Below, in pieces: positions 56,350 to 61,735 of a stretch of DNA of 64,000 bases. Source of the DNA: an uncultured Gammaproteobacteria bacterium (GTDB lineage: Bacteria > Pseudomonadota > Gammaproteobacteria > Poriferisulfidales > GCA-002705445); contig CAJYAP010000003.1 of assembly GCA_913065025.1 (NCBI GenBank), positions 5,876-69,875 of the forward strand, given 5' to 3'. Made by a program: the position numbers and the translations under genes. Position 1 is the first letter of the stretch; each line of letters starts with the position of its first letter. The notes below the pieces were generated by a model. The model saw only the letters and a list, made by a program, of their open reading frames with translations, was not told the DNA's origin and searched no databases.

Positions 56350-56904
56350 TTATTTGTTTACTAGAGAAGCAATTGGTCTTCGCAAAGATAGTAATATTTT
56401 AGGAACCTCTTGATCAATAACATACATTCTTATCCAATTATTATCTAATTCCCCCATATGGGTCATCAAATGGTTCCCAAGTATAATTCTTGATTTATAA
56501 CTTGGTTCCTCGTTATATTCTAGCTCAGAATATTCTCCCATCCGGTCATTTAAAAGATTAATAAATTTAGTCTTAATATTTTCTTTTGGGATTTTTAAAT
56601 CGACCTGGTTAATATTTACTGTTTCATTAAGTTTTTTAGCAATATCTGTTATAAAATTTATTTTTTTTTCTTTATCATAAGATTTGATTTCATTATTTGC
56701 TACATAAATCTGGAAACAAGAAACCTCTTTTAAAATTTCCATTCTTTCGGACCAAGTGTCGGTATCAAAGCCTTCATTTTCTAAATTGAGTAAAGTTTTT
56801 TTTGATATTTTCCAAATACTTACAGCAAGAGCACTAGCAATTTGCCCAACTTGTCTTTTTTTTCCTTTTTGATTCCAACCGCTATGTATTCTTTGTATAC
56901 TCAT
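56350..56904 (-). CDS. hypothetical protein
   Basis: 184 aa soluble protein with no recognisable motif. It is convergent with the 64-aa gene, with 1 nt between the two stops. Confidence 0.6.
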   Translation of the reverse strand: MSIQRIHSGWNQKGKKRQVGQIASALAVSIWKISKKTLLNLENEGFDTDTWSERMEILKEVSCFQIYVANNEIKSYDKEKKINFITDIAKKLNETVNINQVDLKIPKENIKTKFINLLNDRMGEYSELEYNEEPSYKSRIILGNHLMTHMGELDNNWIRMYVIDQEVPKILLSLRRPIASLVNK

Positions 56905-56949
56905 ATTAATATATTTGTTAATTACATATTTTATTATACATCATTACTT

Positions 56950-57522
56950 ATGAGAGAGATAAAACCAAATTCATTTATCTTTGAATTTAATAATGCTTTG
57001 AAAAAGGAAGATTGTAAAAGCATTATAGGTAGATTTGAGGATAATAAAGAAGAACATTATATCGGCAAAATTGGTCAAAATATTTCCGAAGATTTAGATA
57101 TAAAAAAATCTACAGATTTATTTATTAGTGGTAAAGAAATTTGGAAAGATGTTGATAAACTTTTCTTTAGTGCGTTAGCAAAATCATTACATGAGTTTAA
57201 AAATGAAATAGAATTTTTTAAAGGTCCTTTTAAGGATATGGGATATGCTATTCAAAGAACTGATGCTGGGCAATATTATCATTGGCATATAGATGGAGGA
57301 AGTCATGATTTTAGCTATAGGCAACTTGTAGCAATATTTTATTTAAACGATTTAGAAGAGAGTCAGGGTGGCACAACAGATTTCTATCATCAGAATATAA
57401 GTATAACCCCAGAGGCTGGAAAGTTAATTTTATTCCCCCCATTCTGGACTCACAAACATAGAGGTTCAGAAGTTTTATTTAAAGCAAAGTACATTGCGAC
57501 AACATGGATTGTATTTGCTTAA
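56950..57522 (+). CDS. 2OG-Fe(II) oxygenase (prolyl-4-hydroxylase-like)
   Basis: About 190 aa from MREIKPNSF. The facial triad is HWHID ... THKH, and the double-stranded beta-helix strand motif is VAIFYLND ... GGTTDF. Confidence 0.8.
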   Translation: MREIKPNSFIFEFNNALKKEDCKSIIGRFEDNKEEHYIGKIGQNISEDLDIKKSTDLFISGKEIWKDVDKLFFSALAKSLHEFKNEIEFFKGPFKDMGYAIQRTDAGQYYHWHIDGGSHDFSYRQLVAIFYLNDLEESQGGTTDFYHQNISITPEAGKLILFPPFWTHKHRGSEVLFKAKYIATTWIVFA

Positions 57523-57853: not shown

Positions 57854-58060
57854 TTATTTTTTAGAGCCTTTCTCTTCATGTGCAAGGTCAACTATATCCA
57901 TAGCTAAATCTCTATACTCTTCTCTAAAACCTGCAATCTCTGAGTCATCATCTGGAGCAAAATATTCAGATGCTTCAACTCCTTGTTCTCTATCCAAAGC
58001 TATGAACTTTTTTTGCATATCCAGTAACTTTTGAATTTTAGCTTGCTTATCTTCACTCAT
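57854..58060 (-). CDS. hypothetical acidic helical protein (68 aa)
   Basis: MSEDKQAKIQKLLDMQKKF... with a predicted helical character. No recognisable motif. Confidence 0.55.
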   Translation of the reverse strand: MSEDKQAKIQKLLDMQKKFIALDREQGVEASEYFAPDDDSEIAGFREEYRDLAMDIVDLAHEEKGSKK

Positions 58061-58143: not shown

Positions 58144-58488
58144 TTAATACCCGCCTTTTCTTCTGCTTTCAGGCAAGCCAGAAATTCTTCCACCTTGTTT
58201 ACTAGGGTCCCCTGGAAAAAGATCATAAAGAACTTTGGCATCTATTTTTTCACCCCAAAGCTTTTCAAAAAATTTTACTAGTTTTCTCGTATTCGGCTGG
58301 TTCCCAGCATTATTAAAAAATTCATCTCTTAGATGATTTATTACATCCCAATGCCTATCAGTTAATTGTAATTTTTCAATATCAGCTATAGCTTTAGCTA
58401 GGTCTTCAGACCAATCTTCAGCATTAACTAAGTATCCCATTTCTGTTGTCTCTATTTGTTTTCCCGCAATTTCTATTGTTGGCATCAT
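58144..58488 (-). CDS. DsrC/TusE-family protein lacking both C-terminal cysteines
   Basis: 114 aa with a GGGAGG SD. It aligns by eye along its whole length with DsrC (IEIAGKQIETTEMGYL ... LTDRHWDVINHLRDEF ... LYDLFP...KQ). The tail reads QGGRISGLPESRRKGGY instead of QACRFAGLPKPTGCV. Confidence 0.85.
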   Translation of the reverse strand: MMPTIEIAGKQIETTEMGYLVNAEDWSEDLAKAIADIEKLQLTDRHWDVINHLRDEFFNNAGNQPNTRKLVKFFEKLWGEKIDAKVLYDLFPGDPSKQGGRISGLPESRRKGGY

Positions 58489-58510
58489 TTACCTCCCTAA
58501 CGAATTAAAT

Positions 58511-59191
58511 TTATTCACTACTTTTTGAAACAGCTACAGGAGCTATACTTTTGTGAGGTAAAAAGATACCACATCCATATAATTTTCCAATACCTATTCC
58601 GAGCTGTTGTATTTTTATCGAGTCTTTTTTTTCAAGATCTGTTATTAGTAAAGTTTTTCCAATAAGGGTTTTATTAGGAATTTTAATAAAATGTTCCTTC
58701 CCGCACAGCATCTTTTTAACATTTATACCCATAGATATTAAAGATGAATTAACCTCTTGAAGAAACTCTTCTTCGTTTGCATTATTTTCAACAACAACTG
58801 TCCTGCAAAAAAGAGTATCTGTGATAATCAAATTCTTTGTGCTGGGCCTTGAAAGAGTCATCTCATATTTTCCAATTTTAAGCATTTCGCCATCAAGTTT
58901 ATAAAATTCCTTGGAATATTCGACAGGTGTTCTTATGCAAAATCTTGTCCTTTTCGAAAGATATATTTCTGTTTCTGGTCTCTCCCATCCAGCTCCTGAC
59001 TCGGCGCCATATACTGAGTGTATCGCTAAATTATTAATATCTCTTATTTTTGGGAATTTATTAAGAACAGCCTCAAATAAATCATAAGCATGGTCAGATG
59101 AAATCTTATTGCAGTTAACCTTAAATGATACATCAACTATTGCATTATCAGTTTCGTTTGGTTTATTTTGATCATCTTCTTCCCAATACAT
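58511..59191 (-). CDS. Cas6/Cmx6-like RAMP protein, not associated with CRISPR
   Basis: 226 aa. The C-terminal sequence GIGIGKLYGCGIFLPHK exactly fits the Cas6 glycine-rich loop pattern GhG-x5-GhG. The N-terminus MYWEEDD...IVDVSFKVNC..SSDHAYDL resembles what I remember of subtype I-MYXAN Cas6 (Cmx6) family members. No search was run. Confidence 0.6.
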   Translation of the reverse strand: MYWEEDDQNKPNETDNAIVDVSFKVNCNKISSDHAYDLFEAVLNKFPKIRDINNLAIHSVYGAESGAGWERPETEIYLSKRTRFCIRTPVEYSKEFYKLDGEMLKIGKYEMTLSRPSTKNLIITDTLFCRTVVVENNANEEEFLQEVNSSLISMGINVKKMLCGKEHFIKIPNKTLIGKTLLITDLEKKDSIKIQQLGIGIGKLYGCGIFLPHKSIAPVAVSKSSE

Positions 59192-59193
59192 AA

Positions 59194-59385
59194 TTACCTT
59201 TTTGGTGAGGTAAACAGATTTTCAAGATCTGTTTCCCAGTAGTCTGGTGTATCGTCAAAGTTAGGTTTGATGTCTAGTGATAAAAACATTTCACCTTCTT
59301 CAATTTTTTTAGATATAAACTCTTTAAGGTCTTTATAGGATTTCAACTTATATTGTTGAATAAGTATTTCACTCATTGTTAACAT
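59194..59385 (-). CDS. hypothetical acidic small protein (63 aa)
   Basis: GGAG lies 7 nt upstream, inside the end of the TauD-like gene. There are 2 nt between its stop and the next start. No recognisable motif. Confidence 0.55.
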   Translation of the reverse strand: MLTMSEILIQQYKLKSYKDLKEFISKKIEEGEMFLSLDIKPNFDDTPDYWETDLENLFTSPKR

Positions 59386-59389
59386 TTTT

Positions 59390-60271
59390 TTACTCCACTC
59401 TTTTAGAAAATCTTAGTCTTTTAAGCAGTCTTTTATTATTACCATCAACATATTCTTCTCTTTTATGCAGTACGTTATTTGCTAAATAACCCTGATTTTC
59501 TTTCAATAAAAGATTAAAAGTATAATGATTATCTTCCGCTATAAAACTAAAAATAAAATCTTTTATTTTTTTTATTGTATCATTTTTTTTCCATATAATA
59601 TTTTGCTGTCTTGAAGTAAACCTCATGTTTAGAAAGTTTCTTTCATCTATATAAAAAACAGGGCCTTTCACAGAATGACTACCTACAATATTTTTATTTC
59701 CTGGTATCTCCATAATATCGTTTTGCATCAATATATTTATGAACTCAGGATTATGATCTCTCAAGTAAATATATATAATTTCATGATCTAATATTATATT
59801 TTCCCCTCCTCGCTGAGCTGGGTGCTCACAATGCAGTAAGAAAGATTTTATAGCTGAATCTAGCGGGTAGTAGTAACCATCGGTGTGCCAATTTAGCTGT
59901 TTATTTGTATATGGAATATATTCTACATTGGGACTTTTTTCCTTACTTTGATTTTGATTAGTGATATTAGAAATGTCATCTTCATCGGCAAGAAGATTTG
60001 ATACAGAATTTACTAATTTTAATCTAGAACAGAATTTTTTTAGAGATTCGTTTGTTAATTTTGCATCAAATTCATACATTGCAAAATTGTATTTAGTAAC
60101 AGAGTCCTTAAGCAAATTAATTTTATTATTATTTATATCGTTATTTTTAAATTTAATTAAAATTTTTTCTCTCGAAATTGGGTATTGCGCAAGTTTATAG
60201 TCGCGCCATTTTTTATATTCTGTTTGATTTTCGAGTAAAAAAGGAGAGTTCATTATTAGATTGTATGACAT
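59390..60271 (-). CDS. TauD/TfdA-family Fe(II)/2-oxoglutarate dioxygenase
   Basis: 293 aa with LNWHTDGYY (HxD) and a distal His in NNVLHKREEY followed by basic residues, the TauD-like layout. It is the first gene of the operon, 210 nt from dsrA. Confidence 0.75.
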   Translation of the reverse strand: MSYNLIMNSPFLLENQTEYKKWRDYKLAQYPISREKILIKFKNNDINNNKINLLKDSVTKYNFAMYEFDAKLTNESLKKFCSRLKLVNSVSNLLADEDDISNITNQNQSKEKSPNVEYIPYTNKQLNWHTDGYYYPLDSAIKSFLLHCEHPAQRGGENIILDHEIIYIYLRDHNPEFINILMQNDIMEIPGNKNIVGSHSVKGPVFYIDERNFLNMRFTSRQQNIIWKKNDTIKKIKDFIFSFIAEDNHYTFNLLLKENQGYLANNVLHKREEYVDGNNKRLLKRLRFSKRVE

Positions 60272-60481
60272 TTAAGATTAATTTTGATAGGATAATTGTG
60301 AAAATATATTAAATTTATTTAATAAATGTTTGTTACAAGTAATATATCCAATATGGGGTATATAAATGATTCCAAAAGAGATAGATAGGACACCCCAAAA
60401 GAACGATGTCAATAGCAGGAAATAACTCATAAAATAAAATTATCTATAGATAAAAATAATGTAATACAAAGGAGAAAAAGA

Positions 60482-61735
60482 GTGGCTGATAAACATAACA
60501 CCCCTATGTTAGATGAATTAGAGCATGGCCCATGGCCTAGTTTTATATCAGGTATTAAAAGATTAAGAGATCAACACCCAGAAGAGAGAATTTCTAGTAC
60601 AGCAAATTCATTATTAGGTCAGCTCGAACATTCCTACGAAACAAGAAAAGGTTATTGGAAAGGTGGGACAGTCAGTGTATTTGGTTATGGAAGTGGAATT
60701 ATCCCAAGATTTTCCGAAGTAGGTGATGCGTTTCCAGAGTCCAGAGAATTTCATACTCTAAGGGTGCAACCTCCAGCAGGTAATTACTATACTACTGGTA
60801 TGCTAAGACAGCTTGGTGAAAGTTGGGAAAAACATGGTTCTGGCCTCCAAACATTTCATGGTCAAACAGGAAATATAATGTTTATTGGTTCAACAACCGA
60901 AAACACTCAACACTTTTTTGATGAAATTAACGAATACGGATGGGATCTTGGTGGAGCCGGCCCATGTGTTCGAACTGGAATGTGTTGCGTTGGCGCCGCA
61001 AGATGCGAGCAATCTAATATTGACGAAATAAAAATTCATAGAACATTATTAAATAATTTCACAGATGATGTTCATAGACCTGCTTTACCTTATAAATTCA
61101 AATTCAAAGTATCTGGATGCCCAAATGATTGTGTTAACTCCATTGAAAGAGCTGACTGTGCAATTATAGGTACATGGAGAGACGATATGAAAGTCGATCA
61201 ATCAGAGGTTAAGGATTTTGTTGCGAAAAAAGGCAGGAAGTATGTAATCGATAATGTAATTACAAGATGCCCAACAAATTGTTTATCTTTAAAAGACGAT
61301 GATACTTTAGAAGTTGATAATAGAAATTGTGTAAAATGCATGCATTGTTTAAATGTAATGCCAAAAGCATTAAGTCCAGGAGATGATAAAGGCGCAACCG
61401 TCCTTATGGGTGGTAAAAGAACTTTGAAAGTAGGTGACTTAATGGGAACAGTTATAGTTCCATTTATGAAATTAGATACCGAAGAAGACTATGAAAAACT
61501 TACAGAATTAGCTGAAGAAACTATAGATTTTTGGGCTGAGAATGGATTAGAGCATGAGCGTTGTGGAGAAATGATTGAAAGAATAGGGCTTGTGAATTTC
61601 TTGGATGGTATTGGATTAGAAGTTGATCCAAATATGGTTGCGGATCCAACAACAAGTTCATACGTTAGAATGGACGGATGGGATGATGAAGCTGAAAAGT
61701 GGTTCAAGGAAAAATTACAGGCTGCAGAAGCTTAA
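60482..61735 (+). CDS. dsrA: dissimilatory sulfite reductase alpha subunit (oxidative/reverse type)
   Basis: 417 aa with a GTG start after AAGGAG. The N-terminus is TPMLDELEHGPWPSF, the siroheme/4Fe-4S cysteines are CCVGAARCE and SGCPNDC, and a ferredoxin insert is present. Confidence 0.96.
   Translation: MADKHNTPMLDELEHGPWPSFISGIKRLRDQHPEERISSTANSLLGQLEHSYETRKGYWKGGTVSVFGYGSGIIPRFSEVGDAFPESREFHTLRVQPPAGNYYTTGMLRQLGESWEKHGSGLQTFHGQTGNIMFIGSTTENTQHFFDEINEYGWDLGGAGPCVRTGMCCVGAARCEQSNIDEIKIHRTLLNNFTDDVHRPALPYKFKFKVSGCPNDCVNSIERADCAIIGTWRDDMKVDQSEVKDFVAKKGRKYVIDNVITRCPTNCLSLKDDDTLEVDNRNCVKCMHCLNVMPKALSPGDDKGATVLMGGKRTLKVGDLMGTVIVPFMKLDTEEDYEKLTELAEETIDFWAENGLEHERCGEMIERIGLVNFLDGIGLEVDPNMVADPTTSSYVRMDGWDDEAEKWFKEKLQAAEA

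Follow-up and report, generated by a model that had tools for sequence, protein, structure and literature searches.

A cysteine-free DsrC paralogue with a conserved KGGY arm accompanies oxidative dsr genes

Introduction

How can a member of the DsrC family take part in sulfur metabolism without a single cysteine? The question is raised by a gene in a 64,000-nucleotide stretch of DNA from an uncultured gammaproteobacterium (the window), found next to genes of the oxidative Dsr pathway, a main route by which sulfur is oxidised in oceans, sediments and symbioses. The gene, at 58144..58488 on the minus strand, encodes a cysteine-free DsrC-family protein that we call DsrCL, of the KGGY type. We tentatively regard DsrCL as a functional paralogue of DsrC belonging to the oxidative (reverse) Dsr system, and not to CRISPR or tRNA thiolation.

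A DsrC fold without cysteines

By profile search, DsrCL matched PF04358 (DsrC; 1.3e-30, 106.4 bits against a cut-off of 24.9) and TIGR03342 (2.7e-27, 95.3 bits against 53.5), a full-length match above the curated cut-offs that places it in the DsrC/TusE/DsvC superfamily. The open reading frame gives 114 aa from its first ATG. A Shine-Dalgarno element, GGGAGG, was read from the sequence upstream of the start (58492..58497, minus strand), 3 nt from the first ATG and 6 nt from the second; given this spacing, the second ATG at 58485 is likely the true start, and the resulting length of 113 aa agrees with homologues of 112-113 aa.

Among solved structures, the best match was A. vinosum DsrC, 1YX3 (E 5e-21). 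An AlphaFold2 model of DsrCL (pLDDT 90) compared with this structure at a TM of 0.86, and the top Foldseek matches were 1YX3, 1SAU and 2XSJ_C, with TM values of 0.75-0.86. The model and its matches indicate a DsrC fold with a flexible C-terminal arm, the arm being the part modelled with the lowest confidence. The arm scaffold LFP-x2-P-x-KQ-x5-GLP is kept, and belongs to a set of 27 positions that do not vary in DsrC or in the KGGY family. The core of the protein is acidic, with a net charge of -6 and a pI of 5.1-5.8, and the tail is basic (+3).

The tail reads ...LFPGDPSKQGGRISGLPESRRKGGY, and the whole protein contains no cysteine. In the HMMER alignment to 1YX3 and 1SAU, CysB of A. vinosum DsrC aligns with Gly100 (codon at 58189..58191, minus strand), a glycine in 81 of 81 genomes. 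Past the shared GLP the tail is two residues longer than that of 1YX3 and has no CysA; the arm ends in GLPESRRKGGY (residues 104-114; 58147..58179, minus strand) where DsrC has GLPKPTGCV. The canonical DsrC pattern C-x10-C-x, with a penultimate CysA and CysB ten residues upstream, is therefore absent. The profiles, the 1YX3 alignment and the lack of any cysteine confirm a preliminary description of this DNA, which had taken the product for a full-length DsrC/TusE homologue with both cysteines replaced. It had also argued that such a protein could not carry a persulfide or trisulfide. This is borne out: because both reactive cysteines are exchanged, CysB for Gly and the CysA-bearing end for ESRRKGGY-COOH, DsrCL is, judged by its sequence, unable to carry sulfur in either thiol-based form.

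The cysteine-free arm is conserved

A homologue search across 5.8 billion proteins returned 1353 matches, and we inspected the best 120 of these, which are 66-99% identical to DsrCL. The GGY end is present in 118 of the best 120, nearly all of which read ...DPSKQGGRI[AGS]GLPESRRKGGY; the tails of the two others are aberrant or frameshifted, and one of the 118 contains one Cys, at an arm position that varies. More divergent members, seen among the representatives of clusters at 50% identity, differ in the middle of the arm and keep (R/K)KGGY, as in GLPQSTRKGGY and GLPRPFGKGGY. The arm is the best-conserved part of the protein. Its last 11 residues, GLPESRRKGGY, are identical in 81 species-level genomes, where each position is encoded by 2-6 synonymous codons and most of the available synonymous codons are in use. 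Invariant residues combined with freely varying codons point to strong purifying selection on the cysteine-free arm. Sequencing error or a frameshift hiding a Cys-containing tail, a possibility that the preliminary description had allowed for, is ruled out: none of the three frames at the 3' end of the gene yields such a tail, the homologues end in GGY, and the tail is invariant in the 81 genomes despite its varied codons.

Paralogues and family tree

The assembly containing the window (0.98 Mb, 30% G+C, 83% complete) holds three DsrC-family genes. The canonical two-Cys dsrC was expected downstream of dsrH, outside the window, and lies directly after dsrH at G000:C3:69928-70248, 53 nt past the window end, with the tail KQACKYAGLPKPTGCV. 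The dsrC slot within dsrABEFHC is thus held by a separate two-Cys gene and not by DsrCL. The third family member is found on another contig (G000:C4:42095-42412; L003:1489-1830); it has CysB only and no CysA, its tail reads ...ICKLAGLPMPQPDT, and it falls with P0182 and P0267 into a distinct, conserved CysB-only clade. No sulfur genes were found near it.

In the DsrC family tree, the KGGY sequences form one clade (support 99/93), which includes a few degenerate tails and is separate from the clade containing the canonical DsrC of the same genome. The preliminary description had considered that a phylogeny might place the protein in a well-characterised subgroup of known function; the clade is indeed well defined, but it is not a functionally characterised one. 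Orthologues were found in 27 of 30 relatives at 56-96% identity, all scoring above 120 bits against at most 82 bits for paralogues; two of the remaining relatives have DsrC paralogues only, and one has no match at all.

Members of the cysteine-free clade are annotated as 'tRNA 2-thiouridine synthesizing protein E' (TusE, e.g. by JGI) or 'sulfur relay protein DsrC', labels that imply a thiol chemistry these proteins cannot perform. An identity as TusE is ruled out by the absence of Cys and by an NF008562 score of 77.7 bits against an equivalog cut-off of 191.

DsrCL tracks the oxidative dsr genes

A scan of one genome per species found relatives of DsrCL in at least 553 species. To define its distribution, we used 400 genomes drawn evenly from the window's class, counting as orthologues matches with E<=1e-28 that aligned to the last residue. 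DsrCL was present in 111 of these genomes, dsrA in 124 and a Cas6-like gene in 124. Among the 111 carriers, 108 have dsrA, 108 have the Cas6-like gene and 105 have all three; conversely, 108 of the 124 dsrA genomes (~87%) carry DsrCL. As ~12% of the dsrA genomes in this sample are without it, DsrCL is not essential for the Dsr pathway. The three carriers without dsrA are contig-edge artefacts: in each, the contig stops within the cluster, inside or beside dsrQ, at the point where dsrA would be expected. Elsewhere in the phylum, outside the class, the gene is rare, and all carriers checked (G577, G694 and G951) have dsrA.

In the window, dsrA of the oxidative type (60482..61735, plus strand) begins the dsrABEFH(C) operon, and DsrCL belongs to a cluster transcribed divergently from it on the minus strand. 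The first gene of this cluster, dsrQ (59390..60271), encodes a TauD-family dioxygenase (PF02668 3.3e-15); the name dsrQ for a tauD-like gene upstream of dsrA is credited to Lenk et al. 2012 (PMC7596348; bioRxiv 10.1101/197269). There follow a gene for a 63-aa protein (59194..59385, minus strand), which is conserved by tblastn in most loci and forms a dsrQ-63aa-Cas6-like unit with its neighbours, and a Cas6/Cmx6-like gene (58511..59191, minus strand; PF09559 2.6e-54), the usual but not obligatory upstream neighbour of DsrCL. The usual downstream neighbour is a gene for a 68-aa acidic protein (57854..58060, minus strand), which directly follows DsrCL in 62 of 77 loci. The order dsrQ(TauD-like)-~63aa-Cas6-like-DsrC-like-~68aa, divergent from dsrABEFHC, is the common arrangement; among 65 loci with enough flanking sequence, dsrA lies <=7 kb from DsrCL in 63 and the Cas6-like gene is adjacent in 54. 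A promoter and terminator scan of the cluster was uninformative.

Two to three Fe(II)/2OG oxygenase genes (the TauD-like dsrQ and P4H-like 2OG-FeII_Oxy_3 genes) and DUF6866 recur around the cluster in distant Gammaproteobacteria (the window, at 56842-57522 and 59390-60271; L004; L005), which hints at an oxygen-dependent chemistry attached to the Dsr region. At L005:12006-12344 the same extended neighbourhood contains a further DsrC-family gene, which has CysB only and a long tail (...GCRLAGLHAPAGAEDKGFGSAV); it adjoins genes for an acetyltransferase, a 2OG-Fe(II) oxygenase and a DUF6866 protein.

Departures from the common order are informative. In Ca. Porisulfidus and its relatives, DsrCL stands alone, ~314 nt from dsrA and divergent from it, and the dsrQ-63aa-Cas6-like unit is intact elsewhere on the chromosome (L125:8692-10399 and L126:8369-10052; genomes G020 and G017), far from both dsrAB and DsrCL. 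This separation marks the three-gene unit and DsrCL as separate modules. The complete genomes G577, G694 and G321 contain DsrCL and dsrA and have no Cas6-like match at E<=1e-5; in the reverse direction, G231 and G332 retain dsrQ-63aa-Cas6-like-68aa-106aa with DsrCL cleanly missing, and ~12 genomes have the Cas6-like gene and dsrA without DsrCL. In the G694 lineage, which belongs to another class, DsrCL resides inside the dsr operon itself, in the order dsrKLJOPN-cysG-apbC/mrp-[DsrC-like]-tauE (L121:1-11130; GCA_027446705.1, contig DAIDSA010000065.1). Here the start of tauE overlaps the DsrCL stop by 4 nt, and the two are translationally coupled. The products encoded around it include siroheme synthase (cysG), an ApbC/Mrp-type Fe-S carrier and a TauE sulfite exporter, an order that links DsrCL to the supply of siroheme and Fe-S cofactors and to sulfite export.

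The presence and position of DsrCL thus track the oxidative dsr genes, and the Porisulfidus arrangement, the absences in either direction and the G694 operon make the dsr operon its firmest association. The suggestion that DsrCL is a non-catalytic partner of the adjacent Cas6-like protein is not supported in that form. An obligate partnership of this kind is ruled out by the unlinking in Ca. Porisulfidus and by the genomes that keep one gene without the other.

A copy on a phage contig

The IMG/VR contig UViG_3300032087_002997 carries a stand-alone KGGY copy of 113 aa (L092:5974-6315) that is 88% identical to that of the window. Its neighbours are a phage endonuclease gene on one side and PHROG-480/8676 genes on the other; a Mom-like gene for DNA modification lies further upstream, and no dsr or Cas6-like neighbours were found on this contig. 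Exchange with phages, which had been raised as worth checking, therefore occurs. The phage copy is sister to the window's copy in the DsrC family tree, so the phage took up the gene recently from a host of the window's lineage. A phage origin of DsrCL is ruled out by the breadth of the cellular clade and by the place of the one phage copy next to that of the window, which indicate transfer from host to phage. Since the phage carries DsrCL alone, the protein presumably works with host components and without its neighbouring genes. Among 50,697 INPHARED phage records we found no member of the KGGY subfamily and only TusE-like relatives at 36-43% identity. Kieft et al. 2021 counted five viral DsrC genes out of 141 in which both cysteine motifs are missing, and did not assign them a role (PMC8190135).

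A possible role in the oxidative Dsr machinery

What DsrCL does in the Dsr system can be approached through the features it has kept. We infer that it is a non-redox partner or modulator of the oxidative Dsr machinery, a role that seems plausible, if short of probable. DsrCL would dock as DsrC does, with its arm inserted into a DsrC-binding partner, most probably rDsrAB, with DsrMK or DsrEFH as alternatives. Once docked, it would act without thiol chemistry, either as a modulator or as a factor in assembly, maturation or handling; it could, for example, activate its partner, occupy the active-site channel as a placeholder or help to release sulfite. A precedent for such a role would be DsrD, the small HTH-type activator of DsrAB in sulfate reducers. 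Docking on a partner of DsrC is suggested by the DsrC fold, by the 27 shared invariant positions including the arm scaffold, and by the arm being the most constrained part of the protein. The tracking of dsrA, the position beside dsrA in Porisulfidus, the in-operon copy and the lone phage copy all argue for a role as partner or modulator.

Other observations argue against it. The sulfite channel of DsrAB is positively charged and might repel the +3 arm, co-occurrence with the Cas6-like gene is as tight as that with dsrA in Gammaproteobacteria, and the dsrA genomes of the class that do without DsrCL have to be accounted for. In addition, the default reading of Cys-less DsrC homologues in the literature is a regulatory one, as RspA (PMC9371685). 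On balance, the data speak more for a role at the protein level, within the Dsr system, than for DNA binding.

A more specific form of this role is possible but doubtful, and draws on an analogy with DsrD. The KGGY-arm protein could be a dedicated non-thiol effector of oxidative DsrAB, the sulfur oxidisers' counterpart of DsrD. With its invariant basic arm inserted into the channel used by DsrC, it would raise the activity of the enzyme, shield the siroheme site or guide the product sulfite towards export; phages would then carry it to boost sulfur oxidation by their hosts.

DNA binding and the palindrome upstream of dsrA

The best-surviving rival, which we consider rather unlikely, is that DsrCL is a transcriptional regulator in the sense of RspA, whose HTH-like core and basic RRKGGY tail would bind the control region shared by dsrQ and dsrA and adjust dsr expression. 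In favour of this reading, the gene lies divergent to dsrA, a position it holds even where its neighbours are elsewhere, the tail is basic, and a phage could gain from a factor that switches on the dsr genes of its host. Grimm et al. are said to have reported in 2010 that A. vinosum DsrC binds dsr promoter DNA. There is also a possible precedent in M. thiovorans HY1 (Methylovirgula), where the DsrC-like MHY1_00075, which has no CysA, is encoded three locus tags from dsrQ and is noted as a probable regulatory RspA, the term of Venceslau et al. 2014 (PMC9371685). Judged by position alone, MHY1_00075 is probably an orthologue of the window's DsrCL.

A candidate operator was found in the dsrA upstream regions of the window and of L012-L091 and L093-L109. 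In 45 of 69 loci, where fewer than one would be expected, a 16-bp palindrome, TAYCYC-N4-GRGRTA, occurs 120-240 nt before the start of dsrA, and a CACCCCA box often comes ~20 nt after it. In the window, the palindrome is present in degenerate form, TATCCAATATGGGGTA, at 60345..60360, and the box as CACCCCAA at 60391-60398. The palindrome is, however, equally present in dsr genomes without DsrCL, in 11 of ~15 usable dsrA upstream regions. Its retention there means that this sole conserved operator-like element is not tied to DsrCL and lends no support to the regulator model; it is probably the operator of a separate dsr regulator.

Further points count against DNA binding. The core is acidic, and the strongest conservation falls in the arm, which in DsrC enters enzymes, and not in the HTH-like helices. 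Fold matches to HTH regulators were insignificant (E >0.8), and one lineage has the gene at the 3' end of its dsr operon, surrounded by genes for cofactors and an exporter. That an HTH-like fold encoded beside dsrAB need not mean DNA binding is illustrated by DsrD, a winged-helix protein long thought to be a regulator that binds DNA only non-specifically (PMC8794893).

Neighbouring genes, a modified arm and decay

It is improbable that DsrCL is a subunit of a module formed with the dsrQ (TauD-like), 63-aa, Cas6-like and 68-aa proteins, for instance as an adaptor coupling the Cas6-like protein, which is of an RNA-binding type, or the dioxygenase to the Dsr system. The adjacency of the Cas6-like gene in 54 of 65 loci, its presence in 108 of the 111 carriers of the class sample and a gene order fixed across many families would fit such a module. 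They are outweighed by the arrangements described above, namely the unlinking from dsrQ-63aa-Cas6-like in Ca. Porisulfidus, the lack of a Cas6-like match in G577, G694 and G321, and the absence of DsrCL from between retained neighbours in G231 and G332, and by a phage copy that has none of these neighbours.

Still less likely is that the arm is chemically modified after translation to yield a new carrier or redox group, through hydroxylation by the neighbouring 2OG oxygenases or through removal of the terminal Tyr, which would leave Gly-Gly free to be adenylated and thiocarboxylated. Sulfur carriers of the ThiS/MoaD type use Gly-Gly ends, the KGGY end is invariant, and two to three Fe(II)/2OG oxygenase genes occur in the neighbourhood. 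The identical arm is nevertheless kept where oxygenase genes are not nearby and in the phage, the fold is not beta-grasp, and we found no E1-like adenylating enzyme or JAMM-type protease in any neighbourhood examined.

Lastly, the idea that DsrCL is a decaying dsrC duplicate or an artefact of sequencing error or frameshift can be dismissed with near certainty, given that no alternative frame supplies a Cys at the 3' end, that there are more than 1300 homologues, that the tail is invariant although synonymous change is saturated, and that the gene is kept in streamlined genomes of ~1 Mb.

Implications

Cys-less DsrC homologues near dsr genes are already published, and the loose name "RspA" exists for them. 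In the searchable open literature, we found no description of the KGGY hallmark, the tracking of dsrA, the independence from the Cas6-like gene or the in-operon placement, and no paper linking a DsrC-like protein with Cas6 was found in the open literature. DsrCL is present in roughly 87% of the sampled gammaproteobacterial dsrA genomes, its arm is conserved to the degree of an active site, and phages sometimes carry it. Its role, whether in modulating DsrAB, in maturation or sulfite release, or in transcription, would fill a gap in the model of the pathway. Knowing it would also put right the widespread "TusE" and "DsrC" labels through which sulfur carriers are overcounted in metagenomes and in surveys of viral auxiliary metabolic genes.

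Comparison with known systems

DsrC, the gamma subunit or substrate protein of dissimilatory sulfite reductase, is the closest known system. DsrCL and DsrC (1YX3) share a Pfam/TIGR family, fold and length at 40% identity, have the arm scaffold LFP..P.KQ.....GLP in common and are both encoded in the dsr region of a sulfur oxidiser. They differ in the replacement of CysB by Gly and of TGCV by RRKGGY, with the DsrCL arm two residues longer and more basic. Relative to the canonical DsrC of its own genome, DsrCL is 42% identical and falls in a separate clade. TusE, of the sulfur relay for tRNA 2-thiouridine, is a member of the same superfamily, but DsrCL lacks the penultimate Cys that accepts sulfur from TusBCD, and its distribution follows dsrAB. 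Viral DsrC/TusE-like auxiliary metabolic genes mostly keep one or both cysteines, unlike the KGGY-type phage copy.

RspA, the 'regulatory sulfur-related protein' of the DsrC superfamily, comes close in definition, as DsrCL is a DsrC-family member lacking functional cysteine(s) and neither protein needs conserved cysteines; the regulatory role of RspA is itself only a proposal. DsrD of sulfate reducers resembles DsrCL in being small, of HTH type, free of cysteines and encoded beside dsrAB, although the two are unrelated in fold and family. In sulfate reducers, DsrD is an allosteric activator of DsrAB (PMC8794893). Sulfur oxidisers have no dsrD, and DsrCL could, hypothetically, be its functional analogue in these organisms.
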